Shown in pieces: positions 16,542-37,338 of a DNA stretch of 64,000 nucleotides (positions within the stretch are counted from its first letter, which is position 1; every line of letters starts with the position of its first letter). Origin of the DNA: an uncultured virus (IMG/VR IMGVR_UViG_3300043447_000658) (taxonomy: Duplodnaviria; Heunggongvirae; Uroviricota; Caudoviricetes); the IMG/VR virus record IMGVR_UViG_3300043447_000658, positions 1 through 64,000 of that record, one strand, 5' to 3'. The notes beneath the pieces were generated by a model. It worked only from the letters and a program-made list of their open reading frames with translations, made no database searches and was not told the DNA's origin. The translations under genes were made by a program, and so were the position numbers.

Positions 16542-16823
16542 TTAATTCAAAGAGTATGTACCAAATTTTGTGGTTACGATTGGGTTGAATACTTTTCTTT
16601 CTGTTTGTTTCGTGATGATAGTTTTTTTTAGTTCTTCAAACTGTTCTTGTGTTAAGTTTGGTTCACCGAGGGAATCGAAATTTTTTTCGGATATTTTACA
16701 CAGCTCATCATAAAAAATGTCAGGATTTATACTTGACATAAAGTAAGAACTGGCCTCTTCATTTTTTGATAAAAACGATTTGATTTGATTTAAATAAATT
16801 AAAACTTCAGGTTTATAATTCAT
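16542..16823 (-). CDS. Hypothetical protein
   Basis: 93 aa ORF coupled to the nusG stop. Confidence 0.7.
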   Translation of the reverse strand: MNYKPEVLIYLNQIKSFLSKNEEASSYFMSSINPDIFYDELCKISEKNFDSLGEPNLTQEQFEELKKTIITKQTERKVFNPIVTTKFGTYSLN

Positions 16824-17347
16824 TATACTTTTTCTACGTGCTCAATACCAACGGTAACAATCGTTCCTCTACCAAATATCTTAACCTCAACATCCACTTT
16901 GTCTCCTTTAACTGACGATATCACACCATTAAATCCATTAAATGCTCCGTCAGATATTGAAACAATGTCACCACTGTTTAATGTAATTTTTTTAGATTGT
17001 ATATGCTCATCAAGAACTTCATCTTTTAAAATTCTTGCAACATCACTTTCTCTTAAAAGTACAGGTGTTTTGTCCCCAAGTAACCCCATAATTGATTGTT
17101 GATGAGCAATCACTTTAAGGTCATCATCATTCAATTTTTGTTTGGTTTCGAAATAAAGATATCCACTATAAAGAACCTTTTCTCTAATCACTTTTTTGTT
17201 TTTTACAACAACCAAGTTTTTTTCAAGAGGACACACAAATCTAAGGATGTTTTTAATACTACCCAAAGAAATTTCCTTATTATATTGTTCGGTTAATTGT
17301 CTTTCCTTACCCGGTAAAACTTTTACCACATACCAACTTGTACTCAT
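16823..17347 (-). CDS. nusG: Transcription elongation/antitermination factor, NusG family
   Basis: NGN domain (WYVVKVLPGKE...YSGYLYFE) and KOW domain (GDIVSISDGAFNGFNG...VKIFGR). Confidence 0.9.
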   Translation of the reverse strand: MSTSWYVVKVLPGKERQLTEQYNKEISLGSIKNILRFVCPLEKNLVVVKNKKVIREKVLYSGYLYFETKQKLNDDDLKVIAHQQSIMGLLGDKTPVLLRESDVARILKDEVLDEHIQSKKITLNSGDIVSISDGAFNGFNGVISSVKGDKVDVEVKIFGRGTIVTVGIEHVEKV

Positions 17348-17373: not shown

Positions 17374-18210
17374 CTAATAGTTCATTATTAGGAGTTCAGT
17401 TCCCACGTTCTTTTCTTTCTTGGTAGACGCCGCTTTGCTGAAATCTTTCTGTTCCCAACGATAATCTTCTTTTGGGAACCACTCTGATAATTGCGGAAAA
17501 TCGTAATATGATAGACTAAATTTACCTTGTATACCTTTAATACAATCCGCCAATCTCAAGTGGTCATTCACATCAAAATCGTGATTTGAATAATAATTTT
17601 CGGTTTTCCAATATGGTGGGTCCATATAGAAATATGTTGTTGGTGAATCGTATTTTTCAACTACTTTTTGAAAATCGGTATTCTCAACGAACGTAATTTT
17701 ATCAAAATGTTCTCTATATTTTGGATTCTTTAACTTATCCATAAAGACCAACACCTTACAACGATATTTTCCTTTGTAATCCATATAAGATGCGGTTTCA
17801 GGTTTTGAACCTGAGAATACTTGTCCCAATACATAAACGTATTTACACGCAATCTCTAAACTATTCTCATCGGTGATGACTAAATTCTCATCGAATATCT
17901 CTTGTTGATATTGAGCGAACATTTGTCCGTATTCAACAGGAGTATCAACAACACCTAATTGCTGACAAGGGTATTGTGACAATGCACCCCATAGAACATC
18001 ATAGTTCTTAGCCCATTTCATCAAGTTATAATTTAACCTGTTATAGTCATTATAAACGACAGTCTTAAGGTTAGGATACTTTTTTAAGTCCATATTAAAA
18101 AACACCCAAAACATACCTGAAAACCCCTCTACGTAGGTTTCAATGTCGTTTGGGATATATTCCTTTATCCACTTACCAATTCTTGCTTTTCCTCCAATGT
18201 ACGATATCAT
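17374..18210 (-). CDS. Dam-like (D12 class) N6-adenine DNA methyltransferase
   Basis: YIGGK, YVEGFSG, VYND and DPPY motifs; ELLIMNY C-terminus. Confidence 0.9.
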   Translation of the reverse strand: MISYIGGKARIGKWIKEYIPNDIETYVEGFSGMFWVFFNMDLKKYPNLKTVVYNDYNRLNYNLMKWAKNYDVLWGALSQYPCQQLGVVDTPVEYGQMFAQYQQEIFDENLVITDENSLEIACKYVYVLGQVFSGSKPETASYMDYKGKYRCKVLVFMDKLKNPKYREHFDKITFVENTDFQKVVEKYDSPTTYFYMDPPYWKTENYYSNHDFDVNDHLRLADCIKGIQGKFSLSYYDFPQLSEWFPKEDYRWEQKDFSKAASTKKEKNVGTELLIMNY

Positions 18211-26924: not shown

Positions 26925-27734
26925 TTATAAATAGTTTATTAACGAATAACTCTCGTTTCTGAGTTTCTTTATAGCCTTATCTTTAAGCTGTCTGATTCTT
27001 TCTTTGGTACAATTGAATTCTTCTCCGAGGTCTTCTAAGTTGGATTCAACACCATTTAAACCAAAATACTTTTCAATGATTACTTTCTCTCTGTCATCTA
27101 AAACACTCAACACTCTTTCAACTCTTTTTCTAATTTCTTCTTTAGTGTTAAGAATGTCTTCGGGGTTATCTTGGTTCGGATTCTTAATTACATCAATTAA
27201 TTGGTCACCCTCATCATTAATTTCGTCATATAACCCAACACAATATGGTAAACTACTACTTGTTGGTTCGTCTGTGTATTTGATATAATAACTTTCTTCA
27301 TCATTATATTCTTTTTTGGCCTTTTGTGCTTCCTGAACAAGATTAGAAGGTATTCTAATTGTTCTAGCGTTTTCATTTAGAGACGCCATAATGGATTGTT
27401 TTACCCACCATACAGCATACGAAATAAACTTAACTCCTGATGTAGGGTCAAATCTTTCAATTGCTTTCAATAGTCCAATATTTCCTTCAGATATAATGTC
27501 TAATAAATCTAATCCTTGGTTTTGATACGATTTAGAAACTGAGACGACGAATCGTAAATTACCCACAACTAACTCTTCTTTCATAGCCTCAAGTTCTTCT
27601 TTTGGAAGTTCTTTCTTTATTAGTTGTTCAAAAATTTCGTCTTGTCTTTGGTGTGTAATTACTGGTATCTTTTTTAAATCTTTAAGATACTGTTGGATTT
27701 CCTCCGTGTTGATGATGATGTGTTTTTTGGCCAT
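26925..27734 (-). CDS. Sigma-70 family sigma factor resembling Bacteroidota RpoD (no region 1.1)
   Basis: NLRFVVSVSKSYQNQGL, SEGNIGLLKAIERFD, KFISYAVWW, ERIRQLKDKA. Confidence 0.92.
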   Translation of the reverse strand: MAKKHIIINTEEIQQYLKDLKKIPVITHQRQDEIFEQLIKKELPKEELEAMKEELVVGNLRFVVSVSKSYQNQGLDLLDIISEGNIGLLKAIERFDPTSGVKFISYAVWWVKQSIMASLNENARTIRIPSNLVQEAQKAKKEYNDEESYYIKYTDEPTSSSLPYCVGLYDEINDEGDQLIDVIKNPNQDNPEDILNTKEEIRKRVERVLSVLDDREKVIIEKYFGLNGVESNLEDLGEEFNCTKERIRQLKDKAIKKLRNESYSLINYL

Positions 27735-30337: not shown

Positions 30338-32674
30338 TTAAGAAATTTTAGTGGTGATAAATTCAACAGAGGATATATTGTCATCTTTTTTAACCATAAT
30401 GATATTGTCGGACCAGTTCCTTATCAGTGGGTTATGAGAAATAACTAATATATGTTCAAAATAATTTTTGATTTTCTTGAAGAATTCCCCTACCATCTCG
30501 AGGTTGTCATCCGCTATCTTACCAAACACCTCGTCCATTACTACAATGTTCGGTTTAGGTAATGATGATATTTTGGTCAATACACTTCTAATCGCTAAAG
30601 ACGATATTGTTCTTTCGTATCCTGAACCGCTTGATAATGGTTTAACCACCCTTGTTTCATTATCAATCATTAAGAACTCCAATTCGTTCTTATCGTTGAT
30701 GTTTAACTCTAAAGTGAAGTAACAACTATCAGATAACAATCTATAAAGTTCCTGATTCAATAATGGAATCATATTTTTAATAATCACTTTTGAGATTCCA
30801 TTCTTACCAAATATAGTTAAGTAAGTTTTGAACACATAGACTAATTCCTCTTCACTTTTAATCTTTTTGATTAGTTCGTTGTTAACTCCAATCTTCTCGT
30901 TAGACGATGTGATGTTTCCGTTATGTCTTTCAATTGATTGATTGGTGACTCTAATGTCGGCATTAGCAGTTTCAATTTTAGTTCTTAATCCCGTAACTTC
31001 AATATCAATCTTTTGATTCTCGTCTAACTTCTTTTTATTGTTATCGTAGTTATTCAACTTCGCTTGTTTTGTATCGATTTCAAGTTGTCTTTGTTCAACT
31101 TCCAATTCAAATCTCGCCTTACGAAGTTTATTTCTTTCGTAATTGTCGAATTCATTTTTAAGAGATTCTAAACCGTCTGATTGTTCTTTCAGTATATTAA
31201 ACTCAGTTTGATTAGATTCAATGTCTCTATCTATTTGTTCAATTTCTTTTTTGATTTGTTCAATCTCATCAGTGTGGTCAACCTCATCTAATGCTCTTTT
31301 ACAAGTTGGACAAATAGTTCCTTCGGTTAATTGTTTAATTAACTTTTCTTTTTCTGATTTCTCATACTTGAGAGCGAACTCAACTCCTTGAAGTTTGGAC
31401 ATTTCACTTTTAAGTTCCTTATGTTGGTCTTCGTGATAATATGATGATGGTTCTTTTACATCCACACCATCTGCACCTGCTTGACTTTGATTTCTTTTAA
31501 GAACTAACGCATCAATTTCACCTTTTAGTAAAGTAGGATTCGTTCTTATTAGTTCTTGGTCAACGTCGTTATTCTTAGAACTTAATTTTTCGTCACGTTT
31601 CTCTTCTAATTTTTTCAGTGACTTTTCGGTTTCTTCTAAAAAAGTTGTTAGTCTTATAATTTCATTCTCCGAGTTAGATATACCTTCCTGTAATGTAACA
31701 TTAGTATCTTCCAAATCTTTTACATTGTACGTGTTTGATACTAATTTCTTAGACCAATCGTTATACATTTCTTTGCAAATATCTTCTTTCTGTTTTAGAC
31801 TTTCTAATCCTAAAAACTTTGTAAGGATTTGACCTCTAGCCGTTGGTTTAGATTCAATTAACTCTTCTAAGTTATACCCTGTTGTTAATATTGTTGATAG
31901 GAAATCTTCTTGACTTCCGATGGCTGACGATATAAATGTTTCAGTTTCTCTTCTTTGTTCACCAGATAAGTTTGAAACTGTTCCATCTTCACTTACTTTA
32001 AAGAATTCTAAATCACTTTTAACATTGTATTCACCCGCTTTAGTTTTCTTTCTCGTAACACTTCTAGAAATAATATAATTTTCTCCATCGATAGTTACAT
32101 AACCTTTTACTTTTACTTCATCCTTATCACTAAATTTATTGAATACTTCAATATTAGTTTTGGTTTTGGTTGTTGCGTTAAAAAATAAAAACATTAATAA
32201 ATCGACAGTTGCTGTTGATTTACCACCAAAGTTTCTTGGTGTTGATTCAACAACAGTGATTCCGTCTAGATTATCAAATTCAATCACATTATCTTCACCA
32301 AAAGATAAAAAGTTAGAGAATTCTACTTTTTTAATAAACCACTTATTGTAACGTACCTTATTTTGATTTGACTTATCTACTTCAGCATTTACCTTATCAT
32401 CTAACCTATTAAGTAAATCCCACTTAACGTTAAGGTCATTCTCAGTAACGAACTCTTTAACAATATTCTTTTGATATTGATGGTCCAAAATACTATCTGT
32501 TGCTTCGAGTGTCCTCAATTGTGTATGGAGAACGTTCGAAACAATCTTTGTTACAATCTTAACATTAGTGGAGTTGTATTTCTTTTCGAAATAACTTTTA
32601 ACTCTCTTGATTCTTTCTTGGGTGAGATTTTCCGGTGTATCTTCCCACTCTACTTTAATAAAAGGATTTGCCAT
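30338..32674 (-). CDS. SbcC/Rad50/gp46-like SMC ATPase with a ~110 aa N-terminal extension
   Basis: NFLSFG, Walker A NFGGKST, zinc hook CPTC, signature SGSGYE, Walker B VVMDE, ISH. Confidence 0.92.
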   Translation of the reverse strand: MANPFIKVEWEDTPENLTQERIKRVKSYFEKKYNSTNVKIVTKIVSNVLHTQLRTLEATDSILDHQYQKNIVKEFVTENDLNVKWDLLNRLDDKVNAEVDKSNQNKVRYNKWFIKKVEFSNFLSFGEDNVIEFDNLDGITVVESTPRNFGGKSTATVDLLMFLFFNATTKTKTNIEVFNKFSDKDEVKVKGYVTIDGENYIISRSVTRKKTKAGEYNVKSDLEFFKVSEDGTVSNLSGEQRRETETFISSAIGSQEDFLSTILTTGYNLEELIESKPTARGQILTKFLGLESLKQKEDICKEMYNDWSKKLVSNTYNVKDLEDTNVTLQEGISNSENEIIRLTTFLEETEKSLKKLEEKRDEKLSSKNNDVDQELIRTNPTLLKGEIDALVLKRNQSQAGADGVDVKEPSSYYHEDQHKELKSEMSKLQGVEFALKYEKSEKEKLIKQLTEGTICPTCKRALDEVDHTDEIEQIKKEIEQIDRDIESNQTEFNILKEQSDGLESLKNEFDNYERNKLRKARFELEVEQRQLEIDTKQAKLNNYDNNKKKLDENQKIDIEVTGLRTKIETANADIRVTNQSIERHNGNITSSNEKIGVNNELIKKIKSEEELVYVFKTYLTIFGKNGISKVIIKNMIPLLNQELYRLLSDSCYFTLELNINDKNELEFLMIDNETRVVKPLSSGSGYERTISSLAIRSVLTKISSLPKPNIVVMDEVFGKIADDNLEMVGEFFKKIKNYFEHILVISHNPLIRNWSDNIIMVKKDDNISSVEFITTKIS

Positions 32675-32675
32675 A

Positions 32676-33635
32676 TTAATTATTTTTTACACAACTGAAT
32701 TTCCAAACCATACAATCAAAAAGGTAACAACCTGAACAACCTAACTCATCATTATAAACTGCATCACCTTCTAATTGTGAGAACGGATAACCTAAGAATT
32801 GTGCATCATACCTAAGTCCTGTCTCTTTGCACTTTTTACAAGCACTTCTTTTTAATTTATTACAATTACCACATAATGGTTGGAAGTCGGATAGGTTTTG
32901 TGTGTCGGAACTCAAAACATTCTCGTCATTATACCTACCATTTTTGTGGTCTATCTCCATTTTCTTTCCCTTCACACCACAATGAGAACATCTACCGTGT
33001 TCTAATGCCTTTCTTATATCTTTACGAATATATCGATTTTTATGTGAATAATCGAAATTATACCCATCAAATTTAAATGCAACCGTTTTCCCCTTATCTC
33101 TAACTAAAGTAAATTTAAAATACTTCTCAACTGTTCTGTTCCAACCTGTTCCGTTGTTTGGGATACAACTATCATCTTTATTGGTTTTACCAAAATCAGG
33201 ATGTTTTTTAATCTCATCAAAAGTTATTAATTCACTAACACCTTCTTCGTTGATTGGATTAAAATGTAGAAGTCTACCTAAGATAGAATTTGATTTGGCG
33301 TTTTTTTCTAAGCTCTTAAAAAACTTTACTCTTTTGTCTTCATCATCAACCTTGTCTTCTTTTGGTGGTTTTATATGTGATTCGTACTTTTCATTTAAGT
33401 ACTCGACAACATTGTCCCACTCTTGTTTTCTGGTTGGTGTTAAATCAAAGAAACTATCTTTATCACCTTTAATAACTTCAACATAAGTGGCGTTCTTTTT
33501 ATCGTTACCACTTTTGATTTTTAAAGATTCAAATAGTTTTGGTTCTCGTAAATAATATTCTTTAGTTACGTAGTAATATAATTCCTTGGGTACTGAATAA
33601 TCAAAAACCCTATAACCAACTTTTTTTAAATTCAT
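32676..33635 (-). CDS. HNH endonuclease resembling the IceA1/NlaIII (CATG) restriction endonuclease family
   Basis: CSHCG...EIDHKNGR...TQNLSDFQPLCGNCNKLKRSACKKCKETGLRYDA...GCSGCYLFD follows the IceA1/NlaIII motif order as I recall it. Confidence 0.75.
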   Translation of the reverse strand: MNLKKVGYRVFDYSVPKELYYYVTKEYYLREPKLFESLKIKSGNDKKNATYVEVIKGDKDSFFDLTPTRKQEWDNVVEYLNEKYESHIKPPKEDKVDDEDKRVKFFKSLEKNAKSNSILGRLLHFNPINEEGVSELITFDEIKKHPDFGKTNKDDSCIPNNGTGWNRTVEKYFKFTLVRDKGKTVAFKFDGYNFDYSHKNRYIRKDIRKALEHGRCSHCGVKGKKMEIDHKNGRYNDENVLSSDTQNLSDFQPLCGNCNKLKRSACKKCKETGLRYDAQFLGYPFSQLEGDAVYNDELGCSGCYLFDCMVWKFSCVKNN

Positions 33636-33638
33636 AGA

Positions 33639-33950
33639 TTACTTTAATCTACTCTCTTCGAAGAATTCGATAATTGAATTAATTGCCCATACAATACCTG
33701 CGGTGAACATACCATCAAAAAAAATCCCAACAAACCAATGTATTCCGAAAATAGGTCCGATTAATCCACCTAACACAATTGACATAAAGAAACCTACCCA
33801 AGTACTTGTACATAATGTACAACCGATTAGGTCTCCAAAAAATTTAGATTTTCTTTTAATGAATTCTCTTGTTGATTCAAATATTGAACCCCAAACTAAA
33901 ATTGAGGTCATTCCATATGCGGCGAATGCCCATAAAATAAGTTTATCCAT
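33639..33950 (-). CDS. Membrane protein, DUF1360-like
   Basis: Three hydrophobic segments with GDLIGCTLCTSTWVG. Confidence 0.6.
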   Translation of the reverse strand: MDKLILWAFAAYGMTSILVWGSIFESTREFIKRKSKFFGDLIGCTLCTSTWVGFFMSIVLGGLIGPIFGIHWFVGIFFDGMFTAGIVWAINSIIEFFEESRLK

Positions 33951-34001: not shown

Positions 34002-35243
34002 TTAATTACCTACTTTAATGTGTGTGACTTTGGGGTTATTAATTTCCATTACTCTCCACACATCAATAACGATTGACCCATCGGGAAAACCAAAGGTTCT
34101 GAATTGTTCGTGAGGAACTGTAACAATGTAAGTTCCCTTTTCAAAATATGGTTCTATCTCGTCAACGAATGGGTCATAGTGATTAAACTTAATTCCTTGT
34201 TCTGTTAACATATTAGCCAACAACATTGAGGGTGAACCTAATGTTAGGTTTGTATTTTCTTTAAATGTTTTACCCAAGATAGTATAAGGTCCTGGTTGTT
34301 GTGTTAATAATTCAATTAAGAATTCTGTTTGTTCTTCTCTTGCTTCCATAATGTCTTCAAAAAAATTGTGGGATAGATTTAATTTATTAGCCAACCAACT
34401 CATAGCGATATTATCTCTTGGGTGACATCCTCCTCCATCTCCCATCCCTCCATTTAAATATTTGGTAGAAATTAATCTGTTATTTGCCAACTTCAATCCA
34501 CCCATCACCTCGTCCACATTTGCACCTGTTTTGTGACATATTTCCATAATAGTATTGGTGAAGACTATCTTCATACCAATAAAAGTATTATATGAAACTT
34601 TAATTAATTCCGCATTTTTAATAGATGTCTGATAAAAAGGTTTATCGTGTATAGTTCCATAAAAATTCTTAAGTAATTTCGATGCTCTTTTATCTTCGGA
34701 ACCAAACAAAATAAATTCAGGATTTAGGAAGTCTTGGATGGTGGTACCCATTGCAATAAAATATGGGTTATAACATAATATAAAGTTAAAATTATCTTTA
34801 ATAATTGGATAGATTTCTCTTTCAATTGTACCAGGTAAAACCGTTGATATTATTACTACTATCTTTTCATTAGATTGTTTTAATATTTCAGTTGATAGTG
34901 ATTCAATACCTCTTTTTAAAGGTTCGTAATCAAAATCGGCTCTTTCTTCAGGTATTCTTGTACATCCCTCAAATTTATAATCGTGTGGGGTTTGAATTGG
35001 TACAAATATGATGTCACTATTTTTAACGACTTCACTAATGTCACCAAAGTTAATGTTATGTGTTTTTAATAATTCATCGGCACCTTCCTCAAGGTATGTT
35101 AATTTCTTTTTTTCGAGTATTTCTGCAACGTTTTTATCAATATCATATCCCCACACTTGGTGACCTTTGTTGTCAATCGCCAATGCACAAGGTAAACCTA
35201 ATTTACCTAAACCAATAAATCCAATGTTAAACTTATTCGCCAT
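34002..35243 (-). CDS. ugd: UDP-glucose/GDP-mannose dehydrogenase family nucleotide-sugar dehydrogenase
   Basis: GLGKLG Rossmann motif, STVLPGT, AELIK, GGGCHPRD catalytic Cys, FKENT. Confidence 0.88.
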   Translation of the reverse strand: MANKFNIGFIGLGKLGLPCALAIDNKGHQVWGYDIDKNVAEILEKKKLTYLEEGADELLKTHNINFGDISEVVKNSDIIFVPIQTPHDYKFEGCTRIPEERADFDYEPLKRGIESLSTEILKQSNEKIVVIISTVLPGTIEREIYPIIKDNFNFILCYNPYFIAMGTTIQDFLNPEFILFGSEDKRASKLLKNFYGTIHDKPFYQTSIKNAELIKVSYNTFIGMKIVFTNTIMEICHKTGANVDEVMGGLKLANNRLISTKYLNGGMGDGGGCHPRDNIAMSWLANKLNLSHNFFEDIMEAREEQTEFLIELLTQQPGPYTILGKTFKENTNLTLGSPSMLLANMLTEQGIKFNHYDPFVDEIEPYFEKGTYIVTVPHEQFRTFGFPDGSIVIDVWRVMEINNPKVTHIKVGN

Positions 35244-35703
35244 AAAGTGTATTCAAATCGCTATTTTTCATAAACGTTGCCTTGTTAAATTTATTTAACG
35301 CTTCGTTCATTTTATTATTCTCTTCTTTTAGTTTACTAATCTCCTCTCTCAATCTTTCAATTTCAACATTATCTGTTACAGTAACCTCTTTAATAACTTC
35401 TTTAGTTATAATTTGAGTTTCTCCTTTTATTTCAACAGGAACTTCTTTTATAACCTCAACTATTTTCTCGATGGGTATTTCTTTTTCTACAACTCTTTCA
35501 ACAATGACCTCTTTAATTACTTCTTTCTCAACTATCTTTTCACTTCCTTTAATACCATATGGGGTCTCACCATATTTCAATATAGTGAAACCCCTTTGAA
35601 ATGTTTCTTTTGCCAATTTCTCAACATCTTTGATGTCATTCAATCGACAATATTCAAGAAACTCATCACCCAAGGTTAATAAGTTCCTCTTGTTCATTTT
35701 CAA
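35233..35703 (-). CDS. Hypothetical protein with (V/I)xKE(V/I) repeats and a coiled coil
   Basis: 156 aa ORF; start may be the second Met. Confidence 0.7.
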   Translation of the reverse strand: MKMNKRNLLTLGDEFLEYCRLNDIKDVEKLAKETFQRGFTILKYGETPYGIKGSEKIVEKEVIKEVIVERVVEKEIPIEKIVEVIKEVPVEIKGETQIITKEVIKEVTVTDNVEIERLREEISKLKEENNKMNEALNKFNKATFMKNSDLNTLYGE

Positions 35704-36484
35704 TATTGTTTATATCTGTTATCTTAAAATGCATATATGGTTGGTCGTTAGGTAAGTCGTGAAATGTATATTCATTCTTTTCCATATCATAAATTCCATA
35801 ACCGTGATGTTTAATAGTTTCACCAAAGTTTTGTTGAATCAAACTACCAATCATCACCGCTTTACCACCTTCGGGTAATGTAAATGTTTGTCTCTTATGA
35901 ATGTCACCACATAATAATAAATCCAATCCAACAAAGTTTAATTGGTCATATGCATCTTCAAATTCAAACCCCATATCAGTTGATAATCCTTGAATCGGTC
36001 CGTGAAATAACCCAATATGGAATTTACCTTCCATTTTTTCAAATTCAGGTCTTGCATTGTGTTGATATAAAGAATAAACAACCCAATTAACATTCTCGTC
36101 ATTATACACACCACTATCTTTATAATAAGCAATGGTGGGGTCATCCAATAGTTGTACTACCGGTGTAATACTATCCATACGTTGGGTATTGTTCTCTAAG
36201 AAATCGTGATTGCCAGGTATAATCACGACCTTACCATATTTTGATAATTCTTTTAAAAACCAACTTGTTAATAATAGTTGTTCATTAGATATGTTTATCT
36301 TTTGATGTGCAATATCTCCTGCCACAACAATTCTAACTTCTTCATATTGAATACCCTCTTGATTCCATACTATATTATGTTCACGAATTTCGTCAATTAA
36401 TGTTTCAAATTGTTCTTTATACAAATCGTGCAATTGAATTGTGCGAATATGAATGTCAGCAATGTGAATTATTTTCTTAATCAT
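35666..36484 (-). CDS. SbcD/Mre11/gp47-like metallophosphoesterase nuclease (short form)
   Basis: ADIH, AGD, GNHD, FHG, GDIH motifs, GSLIQQNFGE. Confidence 0.92.
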   Translation of the reverse strand: MIKKIIHIADIHIRTIQLHDLYKEQFETLIDEIREHNIVWNQEGIQYEEVRIVVAGDIAHQKINISNEQLLLTSWFLKELSKYGKVVIIPGNHDFLENNTQRMDSITPVVQLLDDPTIAYYKDSGVYNDENVNWVVYSLYQHNARPEFEKMEGKFHIGLFHGPIQGLSTDMGFEFEDAYDQLNFVGLDLLLCGDIHKRQTFTLPEGGKAVMIGSLIQQNFGETIKHHGYGIYDMEKNEYTFHDLPNDQPYMHFKITDINNIENEQEELINLG

Positions 36485-37338
36485 TTTTTAGTGTATTTTG
36501 TTAAATCCATTTGAAGGAGTGTGTTATTAATTTGTGGTGGAACTTTGTATTCAACGAATGTACCGTCTTCTTTTAATAAAACAATCACACATCCCAATAA
36601 TTTGATGTTATCATACTTTGTTCCTTTTAACATTTTAATCAATAACCTTGCATAAAGTGGAAGTTGAATGTAATAGTGACCTAATGCGGTATCGTGATAT
36701 TCTTGGAATGGTGGGTACATTCTACCTGTATAATGTTGTACTTCAAAGTTCTTAGGTTGATTTGTTTTCCAATCGGTAACAACAATTCCAAAGTCCGTAC
36801 CTTCTTTGTTACTCATTAACCATATCTTATCAGGTTGTCCTGTATATCCTAATTCATTATCACCTAAAACAATTTCAGTATCGATAAGAACTGCACCTCT
36901 CTCTAACATTAGGTCGAGAAATTGTTTACCTGCAACAATCATATTGTCACTCTTAGTAAGTTGAGCTTCGTCACATTCAAATATTGGTTTACGAACTTCT
37001 TTGTAGTTTTCAAGTCTCTCAACTAAATCACTCTCCAATTCGAAGTGAACACGACTACCCATATTTGTTGCATATAAACCAGTTGCTTTCCATTGTTCTT
37101 GTAATTCTTTAGCTGCTATGGGGTCCCCATTACACATTCTTAATGAGGTCCCCTCAGCGTCAAATGACTTATGAAATTTCTTAACAACTTTAGATACAGA
37201 TGGGAATGTTTTTCTTAACACACCATTAGTATCCTTCATATAGTAGATGTGCTCTTCTTCTATGAATGACAGTTCTAAATCTTTTCTTCTTTCTTCTAAT
37301 AAATTGTTTATCTCTTTTGAGATTTCTAATAAATTCAT
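36481..37338 (-). CDS. PD-(D/E)XK exonuclease
   Basis: PSVS, GSRVH, GQPD, DWKT, QLPLY motifs. Confidence 0.85.
   Translation of the reverse strand: MNLLEISKEINNLLEERRKDLELSFIEEEHIYYMKDTNGVLRKTFPSVSKVVKKFHKSFDAEGTSLRMCNGDPIAAKELQEQWKATGLYATNMGSRVHFELESDLVERLENYKEVRKPIFECDEAQLTKSDNMIVAGKQFLDLMLERGAVLIDTEIVLGDNELGYTGQPDKIWLMSNKEGTDFGIVVTDWKTNQPKNFEVQHYTGRMYPPFQEYHDTALGHYYIQLPLYARLLIKMLKGTKYDNIKLLGCVIVLLKEDGTFVEYKVPPQINNTLLQMDLTKYTKK

Follow-up and report, generated by a model that had tools for sequence, protein, structure and literature searches.

A solitary NlaIII/IceA1-family nuclease gene in a CATG-free T4-like jumbo phage and its link to CATG loss among relatives

Here, we examined a 64,000-nucleotide stretch of DNA (the window), which comprises positions 1 to 64,000 of the IMG/VR record IMGVR_UViG_3300043447_000658 from an uncultured virus of the Caudoviricetes, with a focus on a gene encoding a 319-amino-acid (aa) protein of the NlaIII/IceA1 restriction nuclease family (Pfam ICEA). 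The coordinates of this gene and of the features discussed with it are collected in Table 1. An earlier annotation of this DNA made from the letters alone (the sequence-only reading) had placed the gene immediately upstream of Rad50 and near Mre11, and both placements were correct: a single nucleotide separates the ICEA stop codon from the Rad50 start codon (TAA-T-ATG), and the Mre11/SbcD-like gene lies about 2 kb away. On the other side, a 3-nucleotide gap separates the ICEA start from the DUF1360-like gene, which is conserved (41-98% identity) at every one of the 80 Rad50 loci compared below and which flanks a slot of variable content. In the window this slot holds ICEA alone, with no cognate methyltransferase beside it as a type II restriction-modification (R-M) system would have. 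Between 30 and 37.5 kb, no terminator-like site was detected, and promoter-like sites occurred at chance frequency.

Table 1 Coordinates of the features around the ICEA gene of the window and of the cassettes occupying the same slot in relatives (ORF, open reading frame)
Feature	Position or locus	Strand	Basis	Word count, observed against expected
Solitary NlaIII/IceA1-family (Pfam ICEA) His-Me/HNH endonuclease gene, 319 aa	32676..33635	-	ORF and Pfam profile	
N-terminal module, about aa 1-90, function unassigned	33366..33635	-	Common to a different slot nuclease	
Middle region, about aa 97-195, weak winged-helix-like fold matches	33051..33347	-	VIA-align, tentative	
Predicted beta-beta-alpha-metal (HNH) catalytic core, about aa 200-275	32811..33038	-	Invariant residues, weak HNH Pfam match	
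Rad50/SbcC-like ATPase (T4 gp46-like)	30338..32674	-	phrog_77, E 1.7e-49; PF13558 weak	
Small DUF1360-like membrane protein, upstream boundary of the variable slot	33639..33950	-	Profile matches	
Mre11/SbcD-like nuclease (T4 gp47-like)	35666..36484	-	Metallophos, E 5e-12; phrog_100, E 3.6e-23	
Exonuclease in the same gene string	36481..37338	-	phrog_298	
D12-class (Dam-family) N6-adenine DNA methyltransferase	17374..18210	-	PF02086, E 1.9e-20	
Slot: ICEA followed directly by N6_N4 methylase	L122			CATG 2/56
Slot: 198-aa ORF and N6_N4 methylase	Five loci, one lineage (e.g. L084:8535-10005)			TCGA 0-1 against 12-26
Slot: 156-aa Type II REase and N6_N4 methylase	L101 (8712-10005), L103; one lineage		PADLOC, E 2.7e-11	GTAC 3/40, 3/29
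Slot: 264-aa Type II REase and D12 methylase	L071 (8406-10005), L116		PADLOC, E 4.5e-9	GATC 4/31, 9/71
Slot: EcoRI-like protein and D12 methylase, plus a second pair	L089:6183-10005			No avoided word detected
Slot: 309-aa protein sharing ICEA aa 1-87, and its own methylase	L076:8162-10005			

The family assignment, which had been proposed from motif order, was confirmed by profile search. The ICEA profile PF05315 matched aa 160-316 along its positions 36-202 (of 218) with an E-value of 3.3e-30 and 105.7 bits, the gathering cut-off being 24. PF05315 is listed as NlaIII/IceA1 type II restriction enzymes within the His-Me finger superfamily (PMC5714182), and NlaIII has been assigned to the HNH superfamily (PMC2441816). 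Comparison with full-length homologues showed that the catalytic core is intact: C216, H218, C219, D229-H230-K231-N232-G233, R234-Y235 and N259 are invariant in 18 sequences reaching down to 37% identity, and so are C255, C266, C269, C300 and C303. We take the His of the D-H-x-N motif to be catalytic together with the downstream Asn, and the Cys pairs to bind zinc. The gene gave an omega of 0.065 and 0.029 in comparison with the two related records G2 and G1 introduced below, with Rad50 at 0.04 for reference; judged from these ratios, it is functional and under strong purifying selection. When L018 and L019 are compared with the window, ICEA shows about 42% identity and the core proteins that flank it 65-87%, indicating either that ICEA evolves much faster than its neighbours or that it has been replaced by exchange.

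Outside the catalytic core, aa 1-87 share 27% identity (E 1e-6) with the 309-aa slot protein of locus L076, whose C-terminal part is unlike ICEA and which has a methyltransferase of its own. For the N-terminal region (aa 1-150), 9 matching cluster representatives were found among 1.84 billion proteins. An AlphaFold model of the whole protein reached a mean confidence score (pLDDT) of 70.3, with 63-93 for the N-terminal module. Structural comparison using VIA-align gave Z scores of 3.4-4.0 between aa 97-195 and the winged helices of TFIIE, ORC, Fur and MarR, and of 4.7-5.6 between aa 200-275 and HNH domains (64-84 residues aligned); since all these values are below the noise guide of the tool, they agree with the sequence evidence and add nothing to it. 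A Foldseek search with the model returned no match at E ≤ 0.001, a sequence search of the PDB gave a chance match alone (E 0.32), and NCBIfam contained no match for the nuclease. Homologues of ICEA were also seen in giant-virus contigs: L033 adjoins a major capsid gene of nucleocytoplasmic large DNA viruses, and L035 (GVMAG label) has an adjacent D12 methylase and an observed/expected CATG count of 6/67.

The sequence-only reading had further described the DNA as apparently free of CATG, and a full count bore this out. The window contains no CATG, compared with 245 ± 13 in 100 dinucleotide-preserving shuffles; likewise, none occurs in the whole contig (72,794 bp; 200-228 expected) or in two related records, G001 (159,820 bp; 512 expected) and G002 (81,704 bp; 213 expected), which are abbreviated to G1 and G2 in pairwise comparisons with the window's own record, G0 (also G000). 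All six palindromes that had been cited as common are indeed present in the window (GTAC 220, TGCA 176, TCGA 143, ACGT 117, CCGG 56 and AGCT 55), but GATC, which had gone unmentioned, is also at zero in the window and contig (about 183-215 expected), in G001 (473 expected) and in G002 (244 expected). CATG avoidance operates at the DNA level, via synonymous codon choice. Codons ending in C precede an internal Met in 0 of 352 cases, compared with 12% at other positions; ahead of a codon starting with G, His is encoded by CAC 61 times and never by CAT, in contrast to 155 CAT and 94 CAC in other contexts; NCA codons precede TGN in 0 of 82 cases, against an overall NCA usage of 53%; and C stands directly ahead of none of 64 start codons. 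GATC is avoided in the same way, with Asp ahead of a C-starting codon encoded 123 times by GAC and never by GAT. An assembly or library artefact was ruled out as the cause, because the absence of CATG recurs in separately assembled records and shapes codon choice. Among further words rare in this DNA are CCTAG, seen twice where base composition predicts 77 and a Markov expectation 17, CTAG (48 against 121 expected), GCGC (5 against 23) and CCAG/CTGG (114 against 303).

The absence of CATG is both selected and still under active selection, with new sites being continually removed. The synonymous divergence between G0 and G2 is nearly saturated (dS about 1-1.7), and across 54.7 kb compared between them, other palindromes with the base composition of CATG and GATC have turned over extensively: 83 GTAC sites are shared while 88 and 86 are lineage-specific, and 36 TCGA sites are shared while 92 are specific to each lineage. 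Over the same 54.7 kb, neither lineage has gained a single CATG, and the same holds for GATC.

The contig represents part of the genome of a T4-like jumbo myovirus. A full size of roughly 330 kb follows from G001, which is about 95% identical to the contig at the nucleotide level and is rated 48% complete; G002 is about 83% identical. To compare the ICEA gene with CATG content more widely, Rad50 was used as an anchor, and the best 80 syntenic loci of 434 relatives in one viral-contig collection were analysed. All four loci with ICEA are devoid or nearly devoid of CATG (observed/expected 0/61, 0/60, 0/60 and 2/56); these are G001, G002 and two phages with core proteins 65-87% identical. In contrast, 73 of the 76 loci without ICEA are mildly depleted, with observed/expected ratios of 0.44-0.85, the exceptions being L087 (0/50), L068 (7/42) and L069 (6/37). 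ICEA is therefore linked to CATG loss, and CATG was the sole word whose loss goes with ICEA presence in these comparisons. This mostly matches the correlation that had been anticipated among relatives; G003, a CATG-free relative without ICEA, is considered below. In a Rad50 tree (77 rows, 54 of them distinct), the ICEA-positive phages occupy three separate positions. One is that of the G0 lineage, whose sister group (99% support) consists of the ICEA-less L053, L054 and L073 with CATG ratios of 0.47-0.66; another is that of the ICEA-positive L060, sister to L087; and L122 forms the third on its own. The contig of L133 stops short of the slot, so it is uninformative on this point.

We also collected another 125 ICEA loci, of which 33 are viral, 80 metagenomic and 12 bacterial. 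Loci were retained if 19 or more CATG were expected and no less than 1.2 kb lay on either side of the gene, which left 75, and a locus was counted as paired if a methyltransferase, searched for with 21 query enzymes, lay within 1.5 kb. The results showed that solo status is linked to exactly zero sites: CATG is absent from 14 solo loci and present in 9, while among the methylase-paired loci it is absent from one, whose neighbour is a C5 methylase, and present in 51. No locus paired with an N6_N4 or D12 methylase is at zero, the minima being 1/27, 2/59 and 3/59. Phages that carry both ICEA and a methylase retain a few residual sites (2-6 in L018, L229 and L241), including the L018/L122 phage with two. 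Several of the zero-CATG loci have normal GATC counts (L259 30/31, L265 23/25), and the ICEA tree requires the zero-CATG state to have arisen no fewer than 3-4 times.

The usual partner of ICEA elsewhere is an N6_N4-family methylase of about 240 aa, which is present in L122, L021 and most other viral ICEA loci. In phages related to G0, these partners are 62-67% identical to one another and carry an SPPY motif, which presumably points to N4-cytosine enzymes. No methylase of the partner type or of the N6_N4 family turned up in genome searches of G000, G001 and G002. A weak N6_N4-like ORF of G001 (L011:444-1142) was considered as an orthologue of an unlinked partner and rejected, as it matches with E about 1e-4 over about 70 aa and has its DPPF motif at position 83, compared with about 30 in the ICEA partners. 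The earlier proposal of self-immunity by avoidance instead of methylation is partly supported: the sequence lacks CATG and no methyltransferase adjoins ICEA, and the nuclease may be what drives the avoidance. It had also overlooked the D12 methyltransferase lying 15 kb from ICEA. This enzyme has 458 relatives in viral contigs, is 69-98% identical among the best 80 of them, is conserved better than Rad50, and is kept even in genomes without any GATC. It occurs in every CATG/GATC class (35 with both words normal, 20 with CATG normal and GATC zero, 8 with both zero, and others). Therefore, this clade-wide core gene is not tied to ICEA and was rejected as its cognate partner, which elsewhere is of the N6_N4 type.

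The slot between the DUF1360-like gene and Rad50 proved hypervariable. It is empty in 15 of the 80 loci, with a gap of 3-52 bp, and in most of the others it encodes a protein of 162-241 aa without an assigned function; the remaining slots hold R-M cassettes (Table 1), several of which accompany a rare word in the carrier genome. These pairings suggest that the specificity of uncharacterised nucleases could be read from the words missing in the genomes that carry them. In addition, L053, whose slot lies at L053:9052-9996, has an AGCT count of 0/28, seen in L053 only.

Taken as a whole, we consider it probable that ICEA in this lineage is an active solitary CATG endonuclease to which the phage is immune by site absence, and which cuts host or rival DNA. 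Activity and CATG specificity are what the enzyme family and the word loss would predict. A lone restriction enzyme should be suicidal to its bearer; since the phage genome contains no CATG, this enzyme would have no target in its own DNA. The putative nuclease would cut any unmethylated CATG-bearing DNA in the infected cell, possible targets being the host chromosome or co-infecting relatives, whose genomes have roughly one CATG per 500 bp, and the neighbouring Mre11/Rad50 nuclease might then process the cut ends. As to its history, a nuclease and methylase pair may have entered the slot, after which the phage's own CATG sites would have been purged and the methylase lost; here the nuclease would be the cause of the site loss and not a consequence of it. 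The series from paired ICEA with 2-6 sites to lone ICEA with none fits such an order of pair acquisition, purge and methylase loss. An extension of this reading to the whole clade of T4-like jumbo phages of roughly 300 kb is possible, and we offer it tentatively: a swappable restriction cassette beside Rad50/Mre11 would demolish host or rival genomes, self being recognised by a missing 4-bp word; pairs would arrive, the word would be purged and the methylase lost; and the clade-specific N-terminal module, common to two unrelated nuclease domains, would couple any nuclease in the slot to phage machinery such as Rad50/Mre11 or packaging.

Several observations weigh against a solitary enzyme that drives and exploits the loss of its own site. 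First, CATG can be scarce where ICEA is missing: L068 and L069 have an observed/expected ratio of 0.16 without the gene, and G003, of the L087 lineage, has a CATG count of 0/141 and no ICEA in 55 kb spanning the slot. G003 is syntenic to most of G0, shows no obvious replacement for ICEA and is rated 17% complete. Two other records, G011 and G012, have CATG counts of 0/95 and 1/116, although neither spans the slot. Both are GATC-free and TCGA-poor (31,407 and 36,396 bp, respectively), and they share with G0 a D12 methylase 72-73% identical and little else; with CheckV completeness of 91-100% at 31-36 kb, they may represent another type of phage with a smaller genome, or their completeness may have been misjudged. 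Second, CATG is at an ordinary level in nine of the solo ICEA loci, and of seven independent solo/paired contrasts, 2-3 are as predicted and none is opposite (sign test p 0.25-0.5); with so few contrasts, the phylogenetically corrected evidence is thin, though the raw table is striking. Similarly, every link between a non-ICEA cassette and a word comes from one lineage with identical Rad50. Third, a lone nuclease could presumably enter only a site-poor genome, unless it came with a methylase. Fourth, the sequence covers about 186 kb of the estimated 330 kb, leaving about 44% of the genome outside, and an unlinked methylase or CATG sites may lie in that part; G001 also carries a C5 methylase besides its weak N6_N4-like ORF, both with specificities unassigned. 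Finally, GATC is just as completely absent, both here and among the relatives. Zero GATC occurs in many relatives that lack ICEA, have normal CATG and have a default or empty slot. No DpnII-family nuclease was detected in five records free of GATC, of which two are 93% complete or more, other families of GATC enzymes not having been searched. A phage may therefore come to avoid a word completely with no nuclease of its own. The absences of CATG and GATC are distributed differently among relatives and so have separate causes.

Much of this would be expected if avoidance were driven by the host, that is, if host restriction at CATG, and also at GATC, had purged the sites and ICEA were a later capture, tolerated only because the genome was site-free by then and with a secondary role or none. 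We regard this explanation as unlikely; nevertheless, G003, the GATC pattern, the nine solo loci and the problem of safe entry into a site-rich genome keep it a serious rival, and the CATG-free or nearly CATG-free G011 and G012, with their lack of GATC and scarcity of TCGA, agree with it. However, it leaves three cassette-word matches unexplained (ICEA with CATG, the 198-aa ORF and methylase with TCGA, and the PADLOC REase_II and methylase with GTAC), as well as the near-confinement of exactly zero CATG to loci without a methylase, and a phage equipped with the corresponding methylase would have no need to shed the sites that a host enzyme cuts. Nor is there a host to point to. A megablast search with 30-38 kb and a tblastn search with the ICEA protein against 50,697 phage records gave no match, and tblastn with Rad50 reached 26-29% identity at best, to uncultured huge phages, a Microcystis phage and Tenacibaculum phages; with the closest cultured phages at this level, there is no cultured relative and hence no host call. 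The two explanations may also be combined, the host having begun the purge and the phage enzyme now maintaining the absence of sites.

It is very improbable that ICEA is instead a free-standing homing endonuclease, a selfish gene that sits in an insertion hot spot and cuts a long specific site in ICEA-less relatives, to which the absence of CATG would be unrelated. T4-like phages are known for such genes, the protein has an HNH core, and its presence or absence is polymorphic at one fixed site between conserved genes, as it would be for a homing element; furthermore, G003 has a homing-endonuclease-like ORF elsewhere (L219:1926-2582, 219 aa, without a G0 counterpart; PADLOC homing-endonuclease models, E 3e-10). 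Against this, the family is that of the NlaIII/IceA1 restriction enzymes, relatives carry ICEA beside a methyltransferase, the link to CATG loss is tight, and the gene has been retained over a long term with an omega of 0.03-0.065. That the protein is no longer a nuclease and serves as a domesticated DNA-binding or regulatory partner of Rad50/Mre11 is hardly credible, for even though the extra N-terminal module with a possible winged helix, the translational coupling to Rad50 and the frequent degeneration of iceA1 in H. pylori speak for it, none of the catalytic or zinc-binding residues varies among the 18 homologues and the CATG-free genome would be left without a reason.

The favoured reading, a solitary and active CATG endonuclease, can be set beside several known systems. 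The type IIP CATG enzymes NlaIII and HpyI (the iceA1-hpyIM system) share PF05315 and the His-Me/HNH core with the phage protein, for which the CATG target is presumed. These bacterial enzymes are about 230 aa long and sit beside a cognate methyltransferase, whereas the phage protein has 319 aa, an extra N-terminal module, no adjacent methylase and a genome without target sites. In phage T4, EndoII and EndoIV cut the host DNA, and the gp46/47 exonuclease then completes its breakdown. The present locus resembles this arrangement in that an endonuclease gene sits alongside those for Rad50 and Mre11, the gp46/47 homologues, but T4 marks itself with hydroxymethylcytosine, while here the self mark would be a missing 4-bp word. 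Site avoidance itself has precedent in Staphylococcus phage K, which is GATC-free, and the classic explanation is a host enzyme. As in that type of avoidance, a 4-bp palindrome has been lost completely by synonymous changes; unlike it, the gene for a matching enzyme is carried by the phage, and among relatives its presence goes with the avoidance.

Viral restriction enzymes have also been found outside bacteriophages. The enzyme CviAII of chlorovirus PBCV-1 has CATG specificity. In chloroviruses, a restriction endonuclease is packaged in the virion, host DNA is degraded within 5 min of infection and its nucleotides are salvaged, and the restriction and methylase genes are always adjacent, self-protection being achieved by methylation (PMC7019647). 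The phage would resemble these viruses in using a virus-encoded restriction enzyme offensively, and differs from them in its missing partner methylase, the protection by site absence proposed for it and its bacterial host. For a marseillevirus, a GATC R-M system was proposed to be a weapon against competitors in the same cell; there the restriction and methylase genes are paired and the viral genome is methylated, and site avoidance is not described in the accessible part of that paper (PMC7253447). In phage genomes, R-M systems were reported to be rare, with 9 in 831 genomes in a 2014 survey (PMC4176335).

A literature search, which did not cover subscription journals, turned up no account of a solitary restriction enzyme in a phage that avoids the enzyme's site totally, or of an R-M cassette slot beside Rad50. 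In this jumbo-phage clade, represented by the 434 Rad50 relatives, a dedicated, fast-changing slot exists and word usage mirrors the slot content. If the enzyme is active, it would offer a clear example from nature of self and non-self being told apart by the absence of a sequence and not by chemical marking. It would also mean that palindrome avoidance in phages does not in every case reflect the host, and that nuclease specificity may be predictable from carrier genomes, for example for the TCGA- and GTAC-linked slot proteins (L084:8535-9128 and L101:8712-9179, respectively), and it would point to a source of new compact 4-bp cutters.

G001 and G002 encode gp23-, gp32-, sheath- and T4-baseplate-like proteins, RNA ligase and thymidylate synthase, along with a large sugar-modification block. 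In G001, the region at 80-120 kb (L009, L010) contains glycosyltransferases, epimerases, a carbamoyltransferase, a tryptophan halogenase and several 2OG-Fe(II) oxygenases. The window also encodes, on the minus strand, a sigma-70-type factor (26925-27734; phrog_351, E 6e-57) and a NusG-like protein (16823-17347; PF02357, E 5e-10). Two genes from the nuclease lies a UDP-glucose dehydrogenase gene (34002-35243, minus strand), which occurs in this lineage only and is absent from L018 and L019.

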